A stretch of DNA of 64,000 bases from the NCBI GenBank assembly GCA_040954595.2, contig CM082591.2, positions 1,773,745 through 1,837,744 on the forward strand, given 5' to 3'. The stretch comes from Balanoglossus misakiensis (Eukaryota > Animalia > Hemichordata). The notes below the pieces were generated by a model. It worked only from the letters and a program-made list of their open reading frames with translations. It was not told where the DNA came from and searched no databases. Positions 11,483 to 62,133 of this stretch are shown piece by piece (position 1 is the stretch's first letter; the number at the start of each line of letters is the position of its first letter). The position numbers and the translations under genes are program-made.

Positions 11483-14072
11483 ATGAGTGAAAGCCTGGGA
11501 GGTTGCGCTCAATGCGCCAAGATTCTTATGATCGTCTTCAATTTAATATTCTTCGTAAGTACAGAAAAAAATCATCCCTGTATTTTTGCAGTTTTTATCT
11601 GTGACACATGAAAGTGTGGTCGAAGGAGCTAGCACGAAAAAAGCACAGCTGTGCCAAAACAGCAAAAGTGATGACTCATCAACACACGTGATAGACCGTT
11701 ATTCAAATGAGTGACTACGCGTTTTGATGACTCATCACTTTTGTTTATACTTTCATGTATACATTGTATGCCCTACCCCTAACAGTTATGGTACCAAGCC
11801 CCTCTTTACACCTTTTCACAAATGAGGAATGTATACTAACTGCTCCCGTTCTCCATGACTAAACCAACAAGAATTTACTCAATGATTGTATACTTCGCAA
11901 AACTCATAGACACAAGTTGCCATCAAAACAATAGAATTCAAGCAAACCTTGGTGGCAAAAGGTTAAATGCATCATATCTTGTATTGATCTGCAACCTTCA
12001 CGTCACCACATAAATAAACTTTTATCTACCTGGATGGCATTTTGGACAAAAGCCGGTTTTACAGTATTACTCAATTTTAGGGGCAGGAAAAATATGAAAG
12101 TGTTGCAAAGCAGAGCTTAATTGAAGCAATATACAGTGAGCACATTCTTCTTTGTTCACAGGTTATTGGAGCAGCATTCTTGGGCGTTGGGATATGGACT
12201 GTGACAGATTTCTACAAGCCAGACATCTTGGCTATAATGGACAACCCAGCTATCACAAATGGAGCGTACATACTTATAGCAATTGGGGCGTTCATTTTTG
12301 TTCTGGCTGGTCTTGGTTTGTGTGGCGCTTGTTGCCAAAGCAAGTGTATGCTTATTTTGGTGAGTTCTTTGTCCTTTTTATTTCTAAGCTTTAAAGGGGC
12401 TTTAAAGGGACAAGCTGCGCTATTTGATATTACTTTTTTGGTTGTAACAAGTATAATTTCATTAGAAATTGAAGTCACAATATGAGTAGCTAAAAACTTG
12501 CAACTATTTCTGTCCTGTTAATCAGGCATGACTGGTGTAATTGTCCTAATATATAAAATAACTAATTATAATCCATTACCTTTTTACTTTCAGTACTTCA
12601 TCATTCTGTTGGTCGTTTTCCTGATCCAGCTCATTGCCTTTGGTATCGTCTTGGCATTTCAGAACAAGGTGAGGTTCATGCCGACTGTAATTCCATGATA
12701 TTGGCTGTAGTTCCCTGAGCTTCACTTAGAGTTGACAATCTGGTGCAGTGTTCAGATATCTTCAGGCATAGGTGCATCTTGGTGTAAAATATGCCTCTGA
12801 AACACTAAAGGTGGAAGTTTTTTTTTGTAATACAGTGCTTGCTCGAAATTAGAATCTGAGTAATCTGAGTGTAATAAGCTTGTTGCTCCATCTGTGATCA
12901 ACTTTTTTTCTGTTTGAATAGGTTGAGAGTTACCTGCGAACAGAAATGGAGGACAGTATGGACAGATACCAGGCCATTGATGGGACTGACACCTACAGTA
13001 CAGCATGGAATGCAGCACAGGCTTTTGTAAGTGTGATAGCATGGCCTCATGTGGGGCAGGGTGTGCTGACTATTTTCGAAACATCTCGCATCACTTCCTG
13101 GTCTTTTTTGCCGGAAGTCCAAGTATCTGTCTGTTACAGACTTGACTTTGTTCTCTGTGTTTTGTTGATTGTTTGTGTTGTGATTGTCTTTTCATCTGGC
13201 CATGTAAATACTGTGTATTTTGACTTCTGAGTTCATTCACAATCATGGGTTAGTTCTTTTCATTTCCAATTTCAGCTCCAATGCTGTGGCATCGAGAACT
13301 ACACAGAATGGCAGAGTACAACCTGGTATAGTGACCAAACACCGTATCAAATTGGCGGACAGTCAATCACCCTTGACTACCCATTATCATGTTGCTATGT
13401 GAGTATTTCATGTAATTAATTTTTTTCCACAACAGTAATCATGGCTTCACTTCATTTGCATTTTTGTTACAAATTATTAATCAACCAAATGCATCGTTAT
13501 AAAAAACTCTGTGATCTTTAAACTGGCAGGTTGAAGATCCAACAGCCATAGTGAATGGTGAGACACCGGAACCAGCTAACCTGACGGCATGTATTGGGTA
13601 TGGTGCAGCTATTCCAAATGAATTCATGTACGATGAAGGCTGCTACACCAGTCTGAAGAACTACTTTGTTGATAACATTTTGTATGTTGGTGCTGTTGGA
13701 CTTGGCATTGCCTTCATTGAGGTGAGTCATTGATCACAAATTTCTACAAAATGATAATTTTTTTTAAACTTTTACCTCAAATTTAGACAAAGTTGGATCT
13801 TTTCATTATTTCTGGCATGTCTGGATCAAAATTAAGTGATGTACAGCCTACAAATACCATATTTTGAAACAAATACTTGTAATTTGTGGTATCTTTACAC
13901 AGGTTTTTTGGCAGCAATTTTATGTGGCTTTCAAACTACACCTTATCTTTACAAAATTACACCTTCTTTGTGTGTGATAATCTCTGCTTTTTCCACCTAA
14001 CAGATCTTGGGTTTAGTGATATCCATCTGTATCTTCTGTGAGCTCAAAAAAATGGATAACACGGTGGCTTAG
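11483..14072 (+). CDS. Tetraspanin family protein, isoform with proximal last exon (ends ...CIFCELKKMDNTVA*)
   Basis: Exons 11483-11554, 12162-12359, 12594-12668, 12922-13026, 13276-13398, 13530-13721, 14004-14072; all GT-AG, phase 0, one open frame. Four hydrophobic TM segments, N-terminal CAKILMIVFNLIFF, and CCG, PLSCC and EGC motifs in the large extracellular loop. Probable 5' UTR acceptor at 11442, with a candidate upstream donor at 9941. Confidence 0.93.
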
Positions 14073-24200: not shown

Positions 24201-26261
24201 ATTATCAGTCTGGGTAATCCTGACACAGTTGTGTCATGAAGCCGAACGCAAATCATCTAAACTTAGAATATTTGTTCGCAAAACTTTCACATCTTTATGT
24301 CGCACCAATTATTGCTTCACGTATATGGTAAGTAATGAAATTAAAAATCAATGGTCGACTGGCGGCCAACACTGGATCAGATTGCAAAGCTAATCATATT
24401 TTCTCGTATTATGGAATACACCAACGGACACTTTTCAGAGAAATATTCATGCAATTGGAAATATGGACCTCAGCCAGTCCACGTCCCTCGTATCCCAACG
24501 TGTTCTGTCAAATTTGATAGATCGACCTGTTTTTGAATCATTGTCATAATCTAATCTCGTTCTACCACAATACCTCTTCAAGTAATTGAGATAACTTAAT
24601 AGCTTTTTCTGTCGAAGTCCACCTAAGTCTTTGATTGTATACGTGCGACTTTCTGGCTATGACTTTGTCTTATTGTATTGTGCCGAAATAAATAACATGA
24701 AAATAATCCCCAAAATCCAAAAGGTTAAATTAAAGTGCTCGAATGACGTCATAGGCAGTGTAGCTATTCTATGCAAATTAGGAAGGTCGAGCTTGTCATT
24801 GGACAAGTGATTGATGACCCCGCATCAGCGCCATACAGTACAAACATTAAACTGGCCACCAAGACCAGAGACACGCGTTTATTAAATTTGGGTGCCATCC
24901 ATTGTCTGGAGTGGGAACATACATTACTTGGCCAAACTTTTGTTTATCTCTTTTCGGTTTTATGTGGAGTCTCAGACGAAATTTACGACGTTCCCCAAAA
25001 GTGCAATTTGAACCACCAAGATGTTGAACGTATTAACTTTTTTCCCCGGCTAACTTATCCACGTTTTCTGTGCCAAAGTTCGTCGAAATGTGGAAAATTT
25101 ACAGGTAACACGTTTCCCGTCGTCTGAATTCCAAATGAAAGTCAGCAATTGTGAAAACTTGGCTTGTTCGATTTTTACTATACTAGGGAGAACCTCGCAT
25201 TCAAAAGAGACTCATCTACCATGTGGACATGATGAAAAGTAAAGGGAGTGGTCAAGTGTTTATGGGTGAATGACATCAAATGATGGGTGCAGCTTCTGCA
25301 GTATTGCGAAACCCTTTTCTAACCGTGACAACTGTGTGATACGGCATTCATGGTTGCCTGTAAATGTATAAGTCGATTTCCTGAAGGCCTGGACAAAAAT
25401 TAAAAGACATTACATCACTCGTCACAATAAAACATCTGGTGATTCGAAACCTTGGAACATGACTAATCTCGGGGAAGGAATGTGTATCACTTTATCTGAA
25501 TCATATATTGGTGAAATGTATTTATTTTGTCCTCAGATGACCTCCCACCCAAACATGTGGGCAAAAGCCCTTACCAGTGTGACCACGATATGACAGTAAT
25601 TACTTTCTTCGTAGTTTGACGACCAGGCAATGTGACTGTATATGCAAATTCAACAGGTGTCCTCCTTTACATAAACTTTTGATAAACTAAATAAAACTAT
25701 GCGTTCATTTCTGTCAGTTGGCCTACATGGCTACCGAGGCCATAAGAGAAAACTTCAAAGTTATTATTTTGTTGGATAAAGCGAATGATGGATCTGTGTT
25801 GTTTTGGGAGGAAATATTAAGCCTTGATCCACGGCTGTGCTTTGGAATCTTGCCGAATGTTTACAGGAAGTCTGAGATAGAACATGCGTTTCCATTCCAC
25901 CGGGAAATCGACTTGAGTGGAAATTTCCTATGACGTGGAAATTCCTTACTGAAAGATATCAGCAAAGTGCAAGTAGGTAAATCCTTCAAAAACATCACAT
26001 GTTTACAAGAACCAGGAGTGACATAGTAGACGAGATTTGATTTCGCGAAGAATGTAGTCCGGGCTTAGGGCACTTTTCTTAATACATGTTTTGTTCCACA
26101 TCTCCGTGGCCGGGTCGGCGCTGGAATTTGCAGATCGCCTCACCCAAAATTTTGCAGAAATGGTGTGTCAGATCGGGCCACGGTCGTGACTCGATATACA
26201 CGTACCAATACCAAGCGGATAGCTCATATTGGCCAACGGGCTTAACACAAATGCGCCTATT

Positions 26262-26545
26262 CTGTACTGTACTGTTGTGTACTGTACTGTACTGTACTGT
26301 ACTGTTGTGTACTGTACTGTTGTGTACTGTACTGTACTGTACTATACTGTACTGTACTGTACTGTACTGTACTGTACTGTACTGTACTGTACTGTACTGT
26401 ACTGTACTGTACTGTACTGTGCTGTGCTGTGCTGTACTGTACTGTACTGTACTGTACTGTACTGTACTGTACTGTACTGTACTGTAATGAACTGTACTGT
26501 GATGTACTATACTATACTGTATTGCCTACTGTACTGTACTGTACT
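26262..26545. repeat. (TACTG)n pentanucleotide tandem repeat
   Basis: About 280 bp of CTGTA units with variants; it explains the spurious CTVLY-repeat ORFs. Confidence 0.97.
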
Positions 26546-27663: not shown

Positions 27664-27670
27664 TATAAAA
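27664..27670 (+). promoter_or_regulatory. TATA box of the deiodinase-like gene
   Basis: GGGTATAAAAG in a GC-rich context 90 nt upstream of ATG 27754; E-box CACGTG abutting AGGTCA at 27552-27563. Confidence 0.6.
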
Positions 27671-27753: not shown

Positions 27754-30700
27754 ATGTCACTGAGACTTCTATCCAGCCCGTGCGCTGGGCCCACTGCCGT
27801 GCACCAGGGCCCGATGCCCATGACGGGCCTACCGCCGATGAGCGGCCCCGGTGGGAAAGTTATCCCACCCGATGGTCCTCCACCGATGTCGATGATGGCA
27901 AATATGATGAACGGTAAGCTAAAACAATTTCACCCATTTGTATGTTCATGTATTACTAAGGGAAACAATTATTTCAAGAAAATTTAAACTTTTGGCAAAT
28001 TTTAGAAATGAATATATTAGGAACATTGTAATACTCGAAAATATTTTTTGCAGTGTTTAAGAAATATATTTTTGAGCTCTTCACGATTTTATCACAACTG
28101 GCATAGCGTTGGTTTTTGTTTGGATTTTGTAATAAAGTATCTGGAAATGTAATTTTACGTGCCTGTAAACTAAAAAAAGCGCTGTCTGCACAAAGTTGAC
28201 ACGTTTGCGAATAAATAGAAGATAGGGCTATACTATTTCGATGCAGCATTTTGCCAACAAAACTTTCTACATACTTTCGCGAAAAAAAAACCCAAGATGA
28301 TTCAAACTCGCCTGACTTTCCGCTGTAGTCGTAAGACTACACTCGTCCATGCCATGTGGTATTAAACGACATTTTCCACCGTATGACGTACATTTCAACC
28401 TGTTAGCGTATTTCATCACCATCTATCGTTACTCTGTATGTATATAATTACATCAAAATTTTCCCCAAGTCAATGTAAACCTTATTTCTCGTGGAGTTTG
28501 AGAACTTGCTGTTTGTTTTTTTACCAGGGGCAAAACGTCTTATCTTTCGACCATCTTTTTTTCTATTCGATGGGTGAGAATATCGTATTCCACGCCATGT
28601 CACGCTAACGTAGAATATAAAAGACGATTTACGTCATATAGAATATTTGTTCTAACTCGAACACCTAGTGTAACAATAGGCGGAACCAGCAGACGACAAA
28701 GTTATCGTTGTTCGTCTTAATGGACCTCTCATTTACAATACGCTGCTTAAGTGTGTCGCGTCTGGTTCCAAAGTCCTGTTTCTAGGAACACGTACACAGC
28801 CTGGGTAACCGCTACGAGACCCATTAAGAATTTAGTCCAACTTTTCGCTAAGATACTAGACCAGTCGACTGTCTAATCGGAAACTGACAGAAATAGGCCG
28901 AGTCAGAAATTATCGTCTGCTACAAATTTACATGAATATGATTCATTTTTGACAAACAAAACTTACTTAAATTTATCGAAAGTACAGGGAAAGTTGATAG
29001 ATACTGTTTGCAATTGCATTACCATTTTGATTGAAGGAATTCGGGGATAAATGATGTCTACCAAGTGAAAACGCTTCATTTGAGACGGAAAGTGAAATTC
29101 GGTAGGTGAGGTTTGAGAGAAATCAGGGAATGGGGTTCTTAATCCAGCATAACACTTTTTGGAGTTGCTCCAATATGTGTCTGGCTTTAACCGGCGCTGA
29201 TTTCCGATGACCGAATTACGGGTACATCAAATTCGCAGTTTACTCGTGAGAAGTTATAAAATGTACGTGCGCGACGAGTTGTTTCTCGTGATCGTTGTTT
29301 GGCGTTTTGTGGGTTACTTTTGGTTCAGTTGAAAACACGCGTAACTTCTAGCGCTCTGATTGGTCCATCACAGTAGCGCCATACGCAACTCCGCAGTGAC
29401 GTCATTCCATTGACGTCACTCATTCTCGGTAGAAGACCTGTTCGCTAATACGGTCCCATGGCCGGGCCTACGAAGGGACAATATGGACTGCTTTTTCAGC
29501 GAACTACTGACGCGTGCATGACTCATGCTAGAAAAATCTCCGCGAATAGTCATGCCACTGTTAACGAATGATTCCCAAGCCAGCTGACAGTAAACAACGA
29601 AGTTTTTCTCCGACTTACTTCGTCTTCGCGACGAGGGAAAGCCCCACCCATTAACTTTATCTTTCAAAACCTTTCCTTATCAAATGACGTTACAATATCA
29701 CATAGCTAGGAATAAAATTGCTTAATTTACTATCGACACTGCAAAATTACACAAGGTATACAACAAGTGAAAGCGGAATTTGTGTCTTGCTGATATGAAC
29801 TTAAAAAGCTATTAACTCCAAATATTTAGTCATTGAAATACATATAGTCTTTCGTTATTATCTGAAAAATGCAACCGTTGCGGAAATTTTACGTGGGCGG
29901 ACCATGCACAGATACGTGCACAGATGCACAAGACACGAGATGACCTCCAGGTTATGTTGAGACCAGCTGGATGTTGTCAGCAAAATGTCAAATGATTTGA
30001 TGAGTGAAAAGGTTACTCCAATTCTGTTTGCCCTGTCGAATACTGCAATATTGTACACAGGCTAAAATATGAATATGGCTCTACTATTTCAGGGAAATTA
30101 TTCAAGTTCCTACAAGACAGGGAAACTGTGATTAAGATAGCGATGAAACATCGCCAGCATACATTTTCCGAAGAAACCCAACACAAGTACAACTTGCTGG
30201 ACCCGTCGAATCGAACCGTTATCCTCGGAATGATGACAATATGGTCGGACACAGCCAACCAAGTTCTCCGGGAGACGTGCCCTGAATTTCCCGACTTCAA
30301 AGGGACGCCATTTGGGGTATTCGCTATAGAGATGCTTCTACAGAAGTACGAGAATGACCCTGAGGTATACAAACCACTATTTATCCAAAAAATCTTAAAA
30401 ATTGGAAGTCGTTCAGGCTATTTTCGGTCGACGATTTCCCGCCAAAATCAAGACAATGTTTCTCGGCCGTCATTAAAATTTTCATCAGAAAATACGCCAA
30501 CTAGAAATGATAATTTCGAGGACGGTCAACGATTAATATTTTCGGGCTTGTGTGTAAATTTAACAAGAAACAACCATCATATATCTGTTTTTTCTTTCAC
30601 ACAGGTTCGCCGCCATCTTGATTTCATGTACGAGTTTAAATCCATGATGCAATCTGGCAACCTGACGATAGGCGACAGAGCGCCCGATGTAGAGATTGTG

Positions 30701-32972
30701 AACCTCGATTCCAAACAGTGTCAACCACTGTCAAGCCTTCATTTACATAACGATAGACCGATGGTCGTCATCGCTTCGTCATTTAGCTGACCCCCGCTTA
30801 GGGTGAGTTTTAAACTTTAATTTATAAAAAAAAAAGATAAATTAGATGGTGATTTTGGTAATTTTTATCGCATGTACCCACAGAGTTTACAAGACCAGAT
30901 ATCAGTTTTTGCTGAACCCTGCCTCTTACAAATAATGGCAAATAAAATTTCGAATTAAATTTACTGAACAGAACTTCGAAAGTATTAAAATATTAAAATT
31001 ATATTAAGTAGGAATTTACTGACCCGTGCCTCTTGTAAATATTGCCAAATAAAAATCTAATAAACTTAAATGCAAAAGAGTTGACACCGAGTGTCTAAAA
31101 TGGTGTACGATATTTCAGACACGTAAAGAAATCGGGTGATTTCTAATAACCAATCAAATTTGTTGGTTTGGGGGTCTGTGTTCCGTTATGCATCGGGTTA
31201 CATGATAGGGTTACATGATACATCTGCGTAACAGCTAATGCACGTGACGATCGCGTGTATAACTTTCCATGCGCACGTGGACATCCTAGCCCATGAGATG
31301 TTGCTGCCATAGGCGAAAGATGACTTTAATTATTATAATTTTAACCAGTGGCTTACATATTTTATCCTTGGAGACTAAATAAGGAAAGAACAAAGCAAAA
31401 CAATACTTCTTCGATCGGTTAACCAGTTCAAAGATCATTTTTAAACTGCACGTACAAGTTTTCCCTCTGCCCTCCAATAACTGTGAACCGGCCCACTTTT
31501 TGTGCGGTTGACCTGCCACGAACGCTGCGCTTGTGTTAGGATAACCCTAGGCCAAGGTCTCCGGTTAAAATGTTTGTCGGAAACGATAATTATGACGGGT
31601 CAAGGTACTTTATAAAGAATCTGAAAGCGTGTATAGGGCTTGGTACACCCCGTGACCACAGGCATCTGAGATTACCAGGGTTAAACTAAGTTCATTCTTA
31701 CAACATACTTCGTAGCGTAGGCACATTACCATGGTGGCGCTGGCCCATAGAAACGATATCAAGCTGACCCCAAAAAAAGTCTAAAACCAGTAAACACGAA
31801 AAGCATGACGGACGACCGTATTCTTACGTTACACGAACTTACAAACAAACTTCTTAGTCGACGGAAAAGAAACGTAGTGACCTACAAAATGGCGAACATC
31901 CTGTTTCTCAATCGGCATTTGATGTTTTTCTCAAGATCCCGGTTTGTTGACCGGACTCCGTTCGACGTAACAACTTGTTGACAGAAAATACACTCAATTG
32001 AACTGCCAGAGTGATGAAACATCGCCGAGAAAGTACTAATCCCTTTAAGTCACGCACGAAATCCTCTTACAAAATATCACCACCGACATTTTCCGACTAC
32101 ATGTATTTCCTTCAGTGTGCGGTCGTAAGTTTAAGGGTTATTGGCGGTCAAATCCCTTGCAAAGTGGGTCTGGCTCATTTACCACAAGTATGCGCTTGCG
32201 CTTGTCTAATTTTAGCGTCAGAGGAAAAGTTTAGGTCAACTTTCTTATTACATGTATTATTATTATTTGTTTATTTCAGGCCATCGTTGATGGCGGCCAT
32301 CTGTCAAGACTAGTAGCAGACTACAAGTCGGACGTCGACTTTCTGTTCGTCTACCTGACAGAGGCGCATCCAAGAGACGGCTTCAGAATGGGGCGAAATT
32401 TCAGCTTCATGAAACAGCACAGAAGTTTGGAGGAGAGAATACAATGCGCACGGTGAGCATTTTAGGGATTCGCGCATGTATGACGGACGCACAGACAATT
32501 TTTTCGTCTGCCCACTAAATATTCATATCGGCTATAGAGAATTTTGGATTTAAACTTAAATTGCACGGTTTGGCGAACTTGAAAATCACTGTTTGGGTTT
32601 AACATTAATTGAGAGAAGACAAAGTATTTGCGGCATGCATTTTCATATAAAAATATTTGGGGAAAAAATAAAGATTGACTCACCTTTTTTATTCTTTTCT
32701 CTTGTAGAGAGCTTCCCAGCAAAGATGGCGACACTTTCACCTCCGACTTGCACTGCGGGTCAAAAGTTCGAGTTGTAGCAGACACAATGGAGAACGACTT
32801 CAACCGAGCCTTCTGTGCACATCCAGACCGTTCATTCATCATCGAAAATGGCAAAATGGTGTTCATTGGGGCCATCATGATAGACCAGCTGAAGATGCCA
32901 CAAAAATTGACCACCGACCATTTGAGAGAGTGGCTTGAAAACCGTTTTCCTAACGCTGCATCGTCGAAATGA
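27754..32972 (+). CDS. Iodothyronine deiodinase-like selenoprotein (~355 aa, Sec at ~residue 206)
   Basis: Exons 27754-27913, 30093-30364, 30605-30802, 32280-32452, 32708-32972 join in frame (phases 1,0,0,2) with one internal TGA at 30788-30790. Deiodinase motifs occur in order: GDRAPD, RPMVVIASSFSUPP, DFLFVYLTEAHPRDG, QHRSLEERI, VVADTMEN, AHPDRSFIIENGK, LREWLE. A SECIS is present in the 3' UTR. Confidence 0.9.
29360..29418. promoter_or_regulatory. Intronic CCAAT box plus two tandem perfect CRE sites
   Basis: ATTGG at 29360; TGACGTCA at 29397-29404 and 29411-29418, within intron 1 of the deiodinase-like gene. Confidence 0.5.
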
Positions 32973-33847: not shown

Positions 33848-33942
33848 ACTGCCCTCTATGTGAGGACTTGTGACAGCTAATCGGTAAAACCCGACAACAG
33901 AGGGCGCTGATAGGCTCGATTTTCTCCCTTGCACGAGGCAGT
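33848..33942 (+). promoter_or_regulatory. Eukaryotic SECIS element (type II, GUGA core)
   Basis: Core G-TGAC (33870-33874) / CGAT (33917-33920). Helix II AGCTAATCGGT:GCTGATAGGCT (11 positions, one mismatch). Unpaired AAAA at 33886-33889 and apical mini-stem CCC/GGG. Helix I TGTGAGG:CCTTGCA, extended by ACTGCC(C)TC:GAGGCAGT. Confidence 0.88.
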
Positions 33943-33998: not shown

Positions 33999-34004
33999 AA
34001 TAAA
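33999..34004 (+). terminator. Polyadenylation signal downstream of the SECIS
   Basis: AATAAA 57 nt after the SECIS, followed by a GT/T-rich tract at ~34021-34050. Confidence 0.65.
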
Positions 34005-34402: not shown

Positions 34403-36484
34403 CTAGGAAGCCATCATGACTGGTCTGTGTTTCTTGGCCTCCAGGTCGACTCCAGTGCTGGCAAAACCAGTACCACCCTGAAAACAAAACAACAAAAATA
34501 AAAAGGAAAATGTCAAAAGAGATAGACAAGTACATCAGTCTAGTTTGCTTTGGAGATGCGATGTGATGTGGCATACACAGGCCAGACAAGATTAAACATG
34601 TGTACATGTTTACTCACCCTCTGTAACTTGATGACATCATTCTCGGTGATCTTCTCACCACTGATGGGGTCCACCATGTCTTTCTTGATCAGTTTTTCGT
34701 AACATTCCACCGTGATAACTTTGCAGCTGTGGGAACAAGGTGTAAATATTTCTAAGTCTCACATAATATGAACATAGGAATTTCCATGCATAGCTGACAA
34801 GGTTCTTAGATAGGAATTTACATGTATAGCCACCAAGGTTCTTAGATAGGCATTTCTATGCATAACAGACACCTTGCCAAAACCATCAATTCCTTCACTC
34901 TATATGGGTCCAGTTTATATAGGTTTCACTGCATTAGGTGCGACACTAGTCCAAAGAATGAACAACAAACATCCCTTTCTCACCTTGTTTTCAACACAGC
35001 GACCGGCGTAGAATTGGACAACGTATCGCGAGTGACCGCACACATGTAGCGGGCATCTTTATTCAGTAAATGGCGTTTATCATCAGCATCATTCACCTCC
35101 ACAAACTCAATATTCAGAAGGTTTTTCACTTTCAGTGGTTTCTTACTCATTGGACACAAAACGTGCTTGTCCTGTGAAAGAAACAGAAATGTAGAAGATG
35201 AAGATTAGGCTCAGAACGCAAACTGTCCCACAACACCCTGCGTTATGCTATCCGCGAAGTGGTCTATGTTCCTGGTCAACTTCCACCAGTGTCATGACAA
35301 AGGTTCCACCCTGTTATTATAAGTCTCATCAGGGTCACTCCATTATATCATATAGGGGTGTCCACTTACAGGTTTCTTGATCTGTGTGGGTTTAGCATCG
35401 GGTGTCAATGACGGGATCCAGAAACTAGGCAGTTCTTTGGCGGATTTCCCATTACTTGTCTCTCCGTTGGTCTGACTGCTTGTACCTGGCTGGGGTTCGG
35501 ATTCTGTGGTTGACGTCTTCTGTTTCTTGGCTGGTGGACCATTTGTGAATGGGTTGATTGGTTTGCTAGTGATGCTACGTTCTGTTTTGTTTAGAGTATA
35601 AAAAATAGTAAATTGTAACTTTACAAATTTATATGTGTGTGTGTCTTCCTATATAATGACTACTGAATTGAATGGAATACTTTACCAGTTTCAGCAAATC
35701 TCTTCAGGCTCTTCTGTTTTTCTTCACCATTTTTGGTGGACTGTTCCATCTGCAAGTAAAATATTAAAAGATTAAAATATATATGAATGTTCACAGCAAG
35801 TGTAGACCACACTACACTGTACATGGAAATGTAGATCGTAATGGAAGTACAGGTCACAGGTATCCATGATCACTACACTTTCTTTGACCTACAACTATCT
35901 GTCTGGATATCTTACCTCCAACTGTTTCTTTTGTCTTTCAAATTCCTTCTGTTGCCTAGCGATAGCTTGCTTCTGGTGTAAGATGTATTCCAGGATAGCT
36001 TCCTTGTCATACAGCCATCCATCGGGTCTGGAAGGCAGACGAGGAAGGACAACTTAGGTCGATGAGAAAGGATGCTTTTCCTTTGAATAATTTCTTACAC
36101 ATATTATAATTCTTGTTTAAAATTTGACTTACGTTACCACTGGATTTTTGCACGGTTGTAATGTAAGACAACAACAGTCAAAATTTCTTGTTGAGTCTTT
36201 GCCCAGTCGGCCCTGCTTGGTTCCATATCCCGATGTTTCTGTTAAATGTACAGAAACAAAACAAGCTGATTTAGATTGTAAACAAATGCAACATACATGT
36301 ACATGTAGGTTACATGACCCTTGCAGTTACATGTAGCAATGCACAGAGCAGAAAAAGAGCGTCGCTCGTCTACAGCAAAGCGACATTGACTTTGAAAACA
36401 TTGTTGCTACTTGCCTGTATCCTTCTTTCTTTCGTGGTACGAGTAAACCGTCCCGGCTGTACAATTTCGTTGATGTCGCGTCAT
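34403..36484 (-). CDS. NOSIP: Nitric oxide synthase-interacting protein (U-box/RING E3-like, spliceosome-associated)
   Basis: Exons 36484-36415, 36238-36133, 36027-35916, 35749-35686, 35581-35370, 35171-34984, 34726-34618, 34477-34403. Translates MTRHQRNCTAGTVYSYHE..., RLGKDSTRNFDCCCLTLQPC, DGWLYDKEAILEYIL, LPSFWIPSLTP, LQRGGTGFA, RPVMMAS*. Confidence 0.96.
34774..34871. repeat. 36-bp minisatellite (~2.7 copies) in a NOSIP intron
   Basis: Unit ATAGGAATTTCCATGCATAGCTGACAAGGTTCTTAG recurs at 34774, 34810 and 34846. Confidence 0.85.
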
Positions 36485-37063
36485 TTTTTTTACGCCGACT
36501 GAAACAAACACTTCTTCAAAACATCAACTTCCTGTCCAAACAACTCGAGGGGGTTTGTGGGTAGGTCACCCTGCACCCAACTTCACGCAGTAAAATAATC
36601 ACAAGAACACGTAATAAAACGTATTTTGACCAAATAGGACTATTTTTACATATCAAAACGTATAAAATTTGATAAATAAATAATTTTAACGCATTTGTCT
36701 GACTAATTTATGCTACGCTTGTTGTTTTATCTCGTACAGTTTGAACTCTCGCAGATTCTCGCATATGTACAAAGGTTAGAGGTCAGCTGGAAGCCATGTG
36801 TTTGAGCGAGGCCGAAGGACTTGATCGCTGTTTATGCGAAGACATGCACGAAAAAGTACCTGATTACGGCAAATATTAGGGTAACTGTCGTGTATTGTGA
36901 GCCCCGCTTGTTTTGATTTGTGAAGGGAGCACCCAGATCTACGCTTATAGCTTGTAACCCTGCCGCGGCTGGGATCGGTCTGTTGATGACCATTTGCTAG
37001 TAAACAACTTCCGCACATTGGCCCAAGACTCCGCTGTCTGTCTTCCAAACATTATGTGATACC
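36485..37063. promoter_or_regulatory. Bidirectional promoter NOSIP / POLR1F
   Basis: Divergent ATGs 579 nt apart; ETS-type ACTTCC motifs near both ends; TCTCGC repeats at ~36747-36762. Confidence 0.7.
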
Positions 37064-38588
37064 ATGGCTGCTAAAACTTTTCAAGAAGCGAAGCAGTATC
37101 TTGACGATCCATACTCTTGTTTCAAGCTAATCAGCACGACCAAACACATCACATTACCACCATGTTACCTGGGCAAACTGAGGAGTGGGGTGAAGGAAGA
37201 ACTTGGTTCTGAAATGCAGCTTTTTTCGGACAGGTAATGCCTACTCACACATTGGTACCCTTGTCATCAACCCAAGCCATCACAGCACACAACACAGTTT
37301 CCAGCAAACCCAGTGACGTTTCAACATAGCCCAAAGCTGGCCAGATTGAGCTACTAGTACTTTGCTGGGTTGATGTCTGGGTAACATTTATGCTTTTTGT
37401 GTCTTCCAGCCTGAATGGTGTTCTAATTGCATTTGAAAATGTGAAGTTACTCAAGCCATTTGGTGATATCCTAGATGACCAACCCTACATCCATTTTGAT
37501 GTTAATGTAGATATGATTATATTCCAGCCAAGTGTGGGTTCCCTGGTGCGGGTAAGTGGTCGACTTTTTACCCACAATGCAATTCAACATCCATGGTTTG
37601 ATGACTCATATTGACAACTTTGCTGCATCTCTCTTCACAGGGCGTCGTACACAAGATCGCTGTGGACCACATCGGGTGTCTGGTCCATGGTTGTTTCAAC
37701 GCTGCAATTCTTAAACCTAAGCAAGAGGTGAATGGTTGGAAAGGTGCCGGAATGACCCTTGGGGAAGAGTTCATCCTGAGGGTGGTGAGGATAGAGACGG
37801 AGAGGGGGGTTCTATCAATGAAAGGAGTAATTGAAGACATGTAAGTTGACTTGTGTGCCTTGACTGTTAGTTTCTCTAGCCCGCCTGTTACAAAACACAT
37901 GACTGTAGTTGCAGTGTGGTGTGGTTAATACAAACTTGTTTGTGGTCATAGCAGACTCGTTACATTTTTCTTGTGTTTTATCATCAGAGAACTACCGAGA
38001 GGATCAAATGCAGCTTTGAGAGAAACAACAGCAAGCATGGAGACAGAGTTAACATCGGTCAAACAGCGTGTGCTCGGAGAGAAGTCGGGAAAATCACGGA
38101 AAGGATCAAAGAAGTCGTCAGAGAAACGAGACACAAGTGAAGAAGGCAGCAATGTTGGTGAGATCGATGGAAAAGTGACAGTTGGAACTGAGGGGGTTGA
38201 TGGACCGACACAGAGGAAGGAAAAACGGAAGAAACGGAAAAGGGATAAACTGCAGACTGCCGAGACCGATCCTGTCACTGACAGACTTGTAAAGATCGAA
38301 CAAACTGATCTGGACAGTCCCAGTTCCAAAAGACCAAAGATAGTTGAGGGTGTAACAACAGGACAGAATAGCGGGGATTTGGACGGTGGGAGTACATCAA
38401 AAGGACAGAACGGCGACATGGGTCGACCATCTTCCCCTGGAAGGAAGAAGTCAAAAAAGTCGAAGAGAAAAGAGAGTGTTGAAATACACAACAGTGAGGT
38501 CGTGAATGTCAAAGTTGAACCCAAAAGTGATGAACTTGATAATGTCAAAAAGAAAAGTAAGAAATCAAAGAAGAGTAAAAAGAAATAA
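37064..38588 (+). CDS. POLR1F: DNA-directed RNA polymerase I subunit RPA43 (TWISTNB)
   Basis: Exons 37064-37233, 37410-37551, 37641-37840, 37988-38588. Motifs HITLPPCYLG, LNGVLIAFENVK, FQPSVGSLVRGVVHKIAVDHIGCLVHGCFNAAI; long Lys-rich C-terminal tail as in RPA43. Confidence 0.93.

Positions 38589-41174: not shown

Positions 41175-62133
<20,959 letters not shown>

Follow-up and report, generated by a model that had tools for sequence, protein, structure and literature searches.

The closest described relatives of the gene reported here are the vertebrate iodothyronine deiodinases DIO1-3 (Pfam T4_deiodinase, PF00837; PDB 4TR3 and 4TR4 for Dio3, 9H48 for Dio2), which combine a thioredoxin fold, a peroxiredoxin-like module, a deiodinase insertion and a selenocysteine (Sec, U) site with an N-terminal membrane helix. 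Outside vertebrates, "DI-like" selenoproteins have been named for invertebrates, protists, fungi, algae and bacteria (bioRxiv 10.1101/314781; PMC2375036; PMC3473315; PMC7539508; PMC8143656), including a deiodinase homologue of Dictyostelium (PMC2375036) and the invertebrate genes counted in PMC3473315, and an amphioxus deiodinase described as a nonselenoprotein uses triiodothyroacetic acid (TRIAC) and not triiodothyronine (T3) or thyroxine (T4) (Klootwijk 2011, cited in PMC8143656 and PMC10083991). In their accessible text, PMC13134290 deals with vertebrate DIO only, and PMC10083991 and PMC11304627 mention echinoderm deiodinase genes without their architecture and present hemichordate endocrinology as little studied. 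Our literature search found no account of hemichordate or echinoderm deiodinases that form a soluble family or one with an N-domain; members may be present in subscription papers and among the invertebrate DI alignments that supplement PMC3473315.

We analysed a window of 64,000 nucleotides (nt) from the hemichordate Balanoglossus misakiensis (GCA_040954595.2, contig CM082591.2) and found a five-exon gene on the forward strand (27754-32972) whose joined product of 355 amino acids (aa) is, judged from its sequence, a member of the deiodinase superfamily that lies outside DIO1-3 by architecture and diagnostic residues, as the initial annotation of this locus had placed it. With the published DI-like selenoproteins, which we compared through descriptions lacking domain architecture, it shares deiodinase homology and a predicted Sec outside vertebrates, and with the amphioxus enzyme it shares the position of an invertebrate deuterostome homologue. 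By sequence comparison, the gene belongs to a family that is expanded in hemichordates and echinoderms and is common to apparently eukaryotic environmental sequences.

All four introns are GT..AG, with phases 1, 0, 0 and 2, and the sole internal stop of the joined frame is the TGA at 30788-30790 (codon 206, context SSFS-U-PPL), in agreement with the earlier proposal that readthrough of this UGA and in-phase splicing to downstream exons would give a protein of about 355 aa. The features of the gene are as follows.

27664..27670, forward strand: putative TATA box (TATAAAA), 90 bases upstream of the start codon
27754..27913, forward strand: exon 1 of the gene model, with the start codon and a Pro/Met/Gly-rich tail
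30093..30364, forward strand: exon 2, encoding the bulk of the helical N-domain, which has neither a Pfam family nor a membrane-like stretch
30365..30604, forward strand: intron 2, 240 nt, in frame and stop-free, with a weak donor (GTATAC); removed in both orthologous RefSeq proteins
30605..30802, forward strand: exon 3, the final N-domain helix, the peroxiredoxin-like module and the active-site loop SSFS-U-PPL
30788..30790, forward strand: in-frame TGA, codon 206, aligned with Dio3 Sec170; predicted selenocysteine
32280..32452, forward strand: exon 4, the deiodinase insertion; Y235, E238, H240 and H257 correspond to Dio3 Y197, E200, H202 and H219
32708..32972, forward strand: coding part of exon 5, the remaining thioredoxin fold and the TGA stop; P307, D308, R309 and I324 stand at Dio3 F258, E259, R260 and R275
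33852..33940, forward strand: candidate selenocysteine insertion sequence (SECIS) of form 2, with helix I, GUGAC (33870-33874), helix II, unpaired AAAA (33886-33889), an apical mini-stem and CGAU (33917-33920)
33999..34004, forward strand: AATAAA downstream of the SECIS candidate

No ATG occurs from the TATA box at 27664 to the start codon at 27754. The exon 1/2 and exon 2/3 junctions are backed by Ptychodera flava and Glandiceps talaboti proteins in RefSeq and the exon 4/5 junction by a second P. flava RefSeq protein, while the exon 3/4 junction (30802 to 32280) is predicted from splice signals, phase and colinearity with a full-length sea-cucumber homologue that carries Cys at the site. Exons 3, 4 and 5 match T4_deiodinase colinearly (profile positions 70-117, 124-173 and 182-236); exons 4 (48.6 bits) and 5 (28.9 bits) each exceed the cut-off of 27 alone, exon 3 (20.9 bits) is below it, and exons 1-2 have no Pfam match. 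The match to PF00837 foreseen in the initial annotation is thus present, and the full-length sea-cucumber homologue reaches 85.7 bits on the same profile.

The orthologues of the gene are split or truncated in the databases. A search with exon 2 identified two proteins among 31 candidates, P. flava XP_070564793.1 (79% identity) and G. talaboti XP_077994540.1 (74%), both labelled "uncharacterized", both sharing the start Met of the window gene, and both ending with the residue before the UGA. A search with exon 5 identified one protein among 15 candidates, P. flava XP_070572425.1 (158 aa, "type I deiodinase-like"), which spans exons 4-5 preceded by an unrelated start. RefSeq apparently stores the P. 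flava orthologue as two pieces, the first of which stops exactly at the UGA, just as automatic pipelines had been expected to fragment this gene. In a tree of 62 N-terminal halves (N-halves), the window gene joins the P. flava and Glandiceps orthologues with a Shimodaira-Hasegawa-like approximate likelihood ratio test (SH-aLRT) value of 99. Misannotation at UGA sites is reported to be common (PMC12822975).

The same pattern extends to a wider family. An N-half profile searched against 1.84 billion representatives gave 18 matches at E<=0.001, of which 16 stop at [GS]SxS; of the other two, one bypasses the site and the other is a full-length protein of 315 aa with Cys. Ten of the 17 new matches were identified: P. 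flava (2), Glandiceps, Saccoglossus, the crinoid Anneissia, the brittle star Amphiura (2), the sea cucumber Apostichopus (Cys) and environmental sequences (2). Seven of these ten are hemichordate or echinoderm N-halves or site-skipping models, and another profile match, P0020, is a JGI/ENA record. A further search gave 15 proteins, including environmental N-halves that likewise stop at GSYS. With six of these 15 proteins we retrieved 78 metagenome loci; the profile reached the active site in 65 and not in 12, and one had no match. The loci are partly redundant, with 45 complete and 41 of these distinct. The active-site codon is TGA in 64 of the 65 scorable loci and never TAA or TAG, and 59 of the 64 read on in frame to E[AS]H. 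Moreover, a natural Sec-to-Cys conversion is found in the sea-cucumber proteins P0015 and P0027 (Apostichopus japonicus and a close relative), so that Cys or a TGA stands at the aligned position in homologues, as the selenoprotein proposal had anticipated. Together with the gene model, these comparisons indicate that the UGA is very likely decoded as Sec, and the hidden selenoprotein suggested earlier is well supported.

On a profile built exclusively from the 45 complete metagenome loci, the window model reaches 160 bits (residues 78-350), a match that spans both the N-domain and the core. In the unrooted N-half tree (62 rows, quick search), 11 named ambulacrarian rows and 7 unsourced rows separate from 44 environmental rows (SH-aLRT 87), and the animal paralogues are numerous and divergent (about 25-30% identity). 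The environmental hosts are apparently eukaryotic, as suggested by eukaryote-type SECIS patterns in 24 of the 45 complete loci and by a JmjN/ARID/PHD neighbour in locus L007. In L007, an intronless family member (1390-2346) lies beside this JmjN/ARID/PHD gene, which is in pieces, and its tree position is nearer the environmental than the ambulacrarian group; because the two genes adjoin, the L007 host would be a eukaryote with a compact genome. In another locus, L034, a family member (919-2247) forms a fusion with ubiquitin-like and ZZ zinc-finger domains (both just under the Pfam cut-off), with TGA at the site and a SECIS pattern 28 nt 3' of the stop. Scans of viral contigs (P0001, P0003, P0020, alignment A6) and prokaryote genomes (P0003), which detect close relatives only, confirmed no locus. 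Against the bacterial deiodinase family NF038285, for which fragments were scored, the P. flava C-terminal half has a weak core match (49.5 bits, cut-off 250) and the N-domain has none.

In contrast to DIO1-3, the window protein has a predicted soluble six-helix domain and a Pro/Met/Gly-rich tail in place of the N-terminal membrane helix. The 19-residue Kyte-Doolittle mean of the window protein peaks at 0.64 in residues 1-165 and at 1.21 overall, and the peak in the N-terminal part does not exceed 1.37 among the 18 proteins from databases or 1.54 among the 65 metagenome loci; the usual membrane threshold is about 1.6. By hydropathy scan alone, there is no N-terminal transmembrane helix in the window protein or in any scored member. 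AlphaFold models of homologues show the helices: six at residues 26-117 of the sea-cucumber protein, followed by a thioredoxin-type core (predicted local distance difference test score, pLDDT, 72), and a helical domain at 51-155 of the P. flava N-half (58 rows; pLDDT mostly 85-97) with a low-confidence tail. The absence of an anchor, the tail and the helical domain described for this gene at the outset are thus all present. In the window protein, the first 54 aa hold 12 Pro, 9 Met and 8 Gly, and this tail is common to the window gene and its two orthologues only. In contrast to the tail, the N-domain of about 100 aa marks, on sequence grounds, a family rather than a single-gene oddity. Searches for structural relatives of the N-domain gave no Foldseek match at E<=0.001, which does not show that the fold is new; the best VIA match was the Sap1 DNA-binding domain (Z 6.4, root-mean-square deviation, rmsd, 4.1, 89 aligned), within the range of common helical arrangements, the best PDB sequence match had an E of 0.084, and the best Atlas score, 0.77, is at most a lead. 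Intron 2 has a length that is a multiple of three and is stop-free in the coding frame, as are 12 of 5000 base shuffles, and this may be chance; its retention would insert 80 aa within the N-domain. Retention was rejected as a source of a membrane helix, since hydropathy is unchanged and the Pfam score is not raised.

The catalytic core is of deiodinase type. The model of the sea-cucumber homologue predicts a thioredoxin fold with the deiodinase insertion, and its best solved match is Dio3 (4tr4; Z 18.1, rmsd 4.6, 168 aligned), with the next at Z 13.2. Dio3 numbering follows PMC12025243 and PMC11592359, as far as these give it, and was transferred via alignments to 4TR3 and the family alignment. 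Ser167, Thr169 (as Ser), Sec170 (as the in-frame UGA), Tyr197, Glu200, His202, His219 and Arg260 are retained, together with the HPxDG loop, and a SECIS candidate lies 3' of the coding region; in window numbering the relay is S203, S205, Y235, E238 and H257, plus H240. Unlike DIO1-3, the window protein has Phe at Cys168 (F204), Arg at Asp211, Pro at Phe258, Asp at Glu259 and Ile at Arg275. The site that holds the thyronine side chain reads P307-D308-R309 and I324 without a basic neighbour, which departs from the DIO1-3 pattern. The proximal Cys (U-2) of DIO1 and DIO3 is missing, and so is the conserved distal Cys: Val stands at the Cys239 position, and the nearby C284 is absent from P. flava.

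Like the window protein, the metagenome relatives lack Arg275 and have the N-domain, an SxS-U-PP site that has no proximal Cys (U-2 is Tyr in 38, Ile in 10, Leu in 9, His in 3 and other residues in 5, with Cys in none of the 65) and the Pro at Phe258 (39 of 41), and the equivalents of Ser167, Tyr197, Glu200 and His202 are invariant in the window protein and in all 41. However, they carry HAxDEW and mostly lack His219, whereas the window protein has HPxDGF. The Phe at U-2, the DGF and the replaced GxGP segment noted in the initial annotation are as described. These atypical features are present but not peculiar to this gene, being traits of the family; DGF alone is local to the orthologue group, with Trp in three other animal members and in all 41 metagenome relatives.

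The SECIS candidate (33870-33920) lies about 900 nt 3' of the stop and 5' of the AATAAA at 33999. Its layout fits form 2 as described in PMC2673426. A pattern scan of both window strands (128 kb) gave 16 matches, among which this one is best in both helix II (-12.7 kcal/mol) and helix I (-18.8 kcal/mol); in 300 Markov shuffles of the 3' region, 28 held any pattern match and none met even the looser energy limits. Neither this candidate nor the TATA box at 27664 was mentioned in the initial annotation. An attempt to derive a covariance model from the homologous SECIS candidates was abandoned because MAFFT aligned 14 of them out of register.

An intact deiodinase-specific relay, combined with changes in the elements that bind the thyronine side chain, suggests reductive dehalogenation through Sec in the cytosol. 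By analogy with Dio chemistry, the U206 selenolate would take the halogen via halogen bonding, the S203/S205/Y235/E238/H257 network would pass a proton to the ring, and H240 would hold the phenol. Without equivalents of Arg275, Asp211 and Phe258, the amino-acid side chain of T4 or T3 would be poorly held, and the substrate would therefore likely be another halophenol, a haloindole or a thyronine derivative. Because there is no proximal or conserved distal Cys, re-reduction would depend on an outside thiol or on another Cys (a candidate is C304, beside the active-site Pro), or the enzyme would turn over once, like Dio2. The six-helix N-domain would likely replace the transmembrane helix and linker that DIO1-3 need for dimerisation; it may be a dimer module, since Dio activity is reported to need a dimer that depends on the N-terminal region and not on the membrane (PMC11592359). 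Bromophenols and haloindoles are abundant in enteropneusts (PMC6315191), and debromination of some polybrominated diphenyl ethers by Dios has been reported (PMC7144113). We consider it an even call that the protein, which is predicted to be soluble, is a dehalogenase for phenolic iodo- or bromo-aromatics other than thyroxine.

Several observations weigh against a Sec-dependent dehalogenase of this kind. For the SECIS candidate, Rfam finds no SECIS at E<=10 in the window, the folding energy is ordinary (z -0.4 to -1.2), and the element starts with GUGA, not AUGA. GUGA is a tolerated SECIS start, our literature search found no paper backing it as such, and an initial G also occurs in 6 of 24 homologous candidates. 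Two further AATAAA (32985 and 33174) lie between the stop codon and the candidate; their usage would yield mRNAs incapable of UGA recoding, a possible switch. For dehalogenation, the solved structures that rank next behind Dio3 are peroxiredoxins and thiol-disulfide oxidoreductases (Z 12-13), and His219 is present in 11 of the 41 metagenome relatives, so that dehalogenation is not required of the whole family. For a substrate other than thyroxine, the window protein retains His219 and has D308-R309 at Glu259-Arg260, which makes it more like a thyronine site than its microbial relatives, and the family occurs in echinoderms and microbes and hence is not confined to bromophenol-rich animals. Finally, the catalytic core alone (P0003) scores 95 bits on the metagenome-family profile and 85 bits on T4_deiodinase; given these near-equal scores and the HPxDG loop, the core may be of mixed ancestry.

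The same selenoprotein could instead be a peroxiredoxin-like thiol or peroxide reductase on a deiodinase scaffold, without dehalogenation, which we regard as rather unlikely. The fold and the next-best structural matches are those expected of such an enzyme, as is the Pro at the Phe258 position, which we take to be the usual cis-Pro site of thioredoxins, and the family is widespread, including in organisms without known thyroid signalling, as is the case for the Dictyostelium homologue (PMC2375036). However, there is no CxxU or UxxC motif, Dio3 is the best structural match by about 5 Z units, and the deiodinase-specific insertion and the Ser167, Tyr197, Glu200 and His202 equivalents are kept throughout.

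Doubtful too is a cytosolic thyroid-hormone deiodinase acting on T4, T3, reverse T3 (rT3) or TRIAC during larval development and metamorphosis. Both the window protein and its P. flava orthologue retain the relay, His202, His219, Arg260 and an acidic residue at Glu259; Dio2 without a proximal Cys and Dio1 without an Arg275 equivalent are both thyronine-active, and Dio dimers form without membrane attachment (PMC11592359). The preference of the amphioxus enzyme for TRIAC and the responses of echinoderms to thyroid hormones (PMC10083991) point the same way. On the other hand, Arg275, which is reported to be required for Dio3 activity (PMC12025243), Asp211 and Phe258 are all replaced, Asn or Ile occupies the Glu259 position in other animal paralogues, and the many divergent paralogues suggest multiple substrates and not one hormone. 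A true stop at the UGA, which would make the N-half an independent protein and leave exons 4-5 as another gene or a dead one, in line with the P. flava RefSeq models, is very improbable: the P. flava and Glandiceps models do terminate there and the early AATAAA signals could produce SECIS-less mRNAs, but a stop would sever the thioredoxin fold right at the catalytic position, there is a full-length form with a natural Cys, 64 of 65 loci have TGA at the codon with TAA and TAG never seen, and the splice sites are in phase with a SECIS candidate downstream.

Elsewhere in the window, tblastn with six family proteins matched these five exons only, with no second deiodinase-like gene. Regions 12081-13230, 34500-36800, 37330-38588 and 43400-59600 look like ordinary animal genes, among them, by Pfam, a tetraspanin gene (forward strand) and a TOG-domain CKAP5/XMAP215 gene (reverse strand). 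Two other neighbours, which we presume to be NOSIP-like (reverse strand) and RNA polymerase I subunit RPA43-like (forward strand), gave no Pfam match with the exons tried. A pentanucleotide-type tandem repeat at 26250-26520, about 1.2 kb 5' of the gene, appears as repetitive open reading frames.

These comparisons recognise a deiodinase subfamily, predicted to be soluble and to carry a helical domain, that is expanded in hemichordates and echinoderms and masked by annotation. The family is largely invisible in databases because its models stop at the UGA, and selenoproteome counts for hemichordates and echinoderms are therefore likely too low. A more speculative reading, which we hold to be improbable, is that the soluble helical-domain form is an old eukaryotic deiodinase architecture that was retained and expanded in acorn worms and echinoderms, where the enzymes would be selenium dehalogenases of organobromines and organoiodines that occur naturally in the sea, among them the bromophenols of the worms themselves, and that membrane DIOs arose from such an enzyme by exchanging the domain for a helix. 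The sea-cucumber Cys member would be expressible without the selenocysteine machinery and could provide a first full-length structure of an active enzyme with the deiodinase fold. By definition, deiodinases are membrane enzymes; a soluble animal family would allow bench tests of the role that deiodinase homologues had before thyroid hormones.

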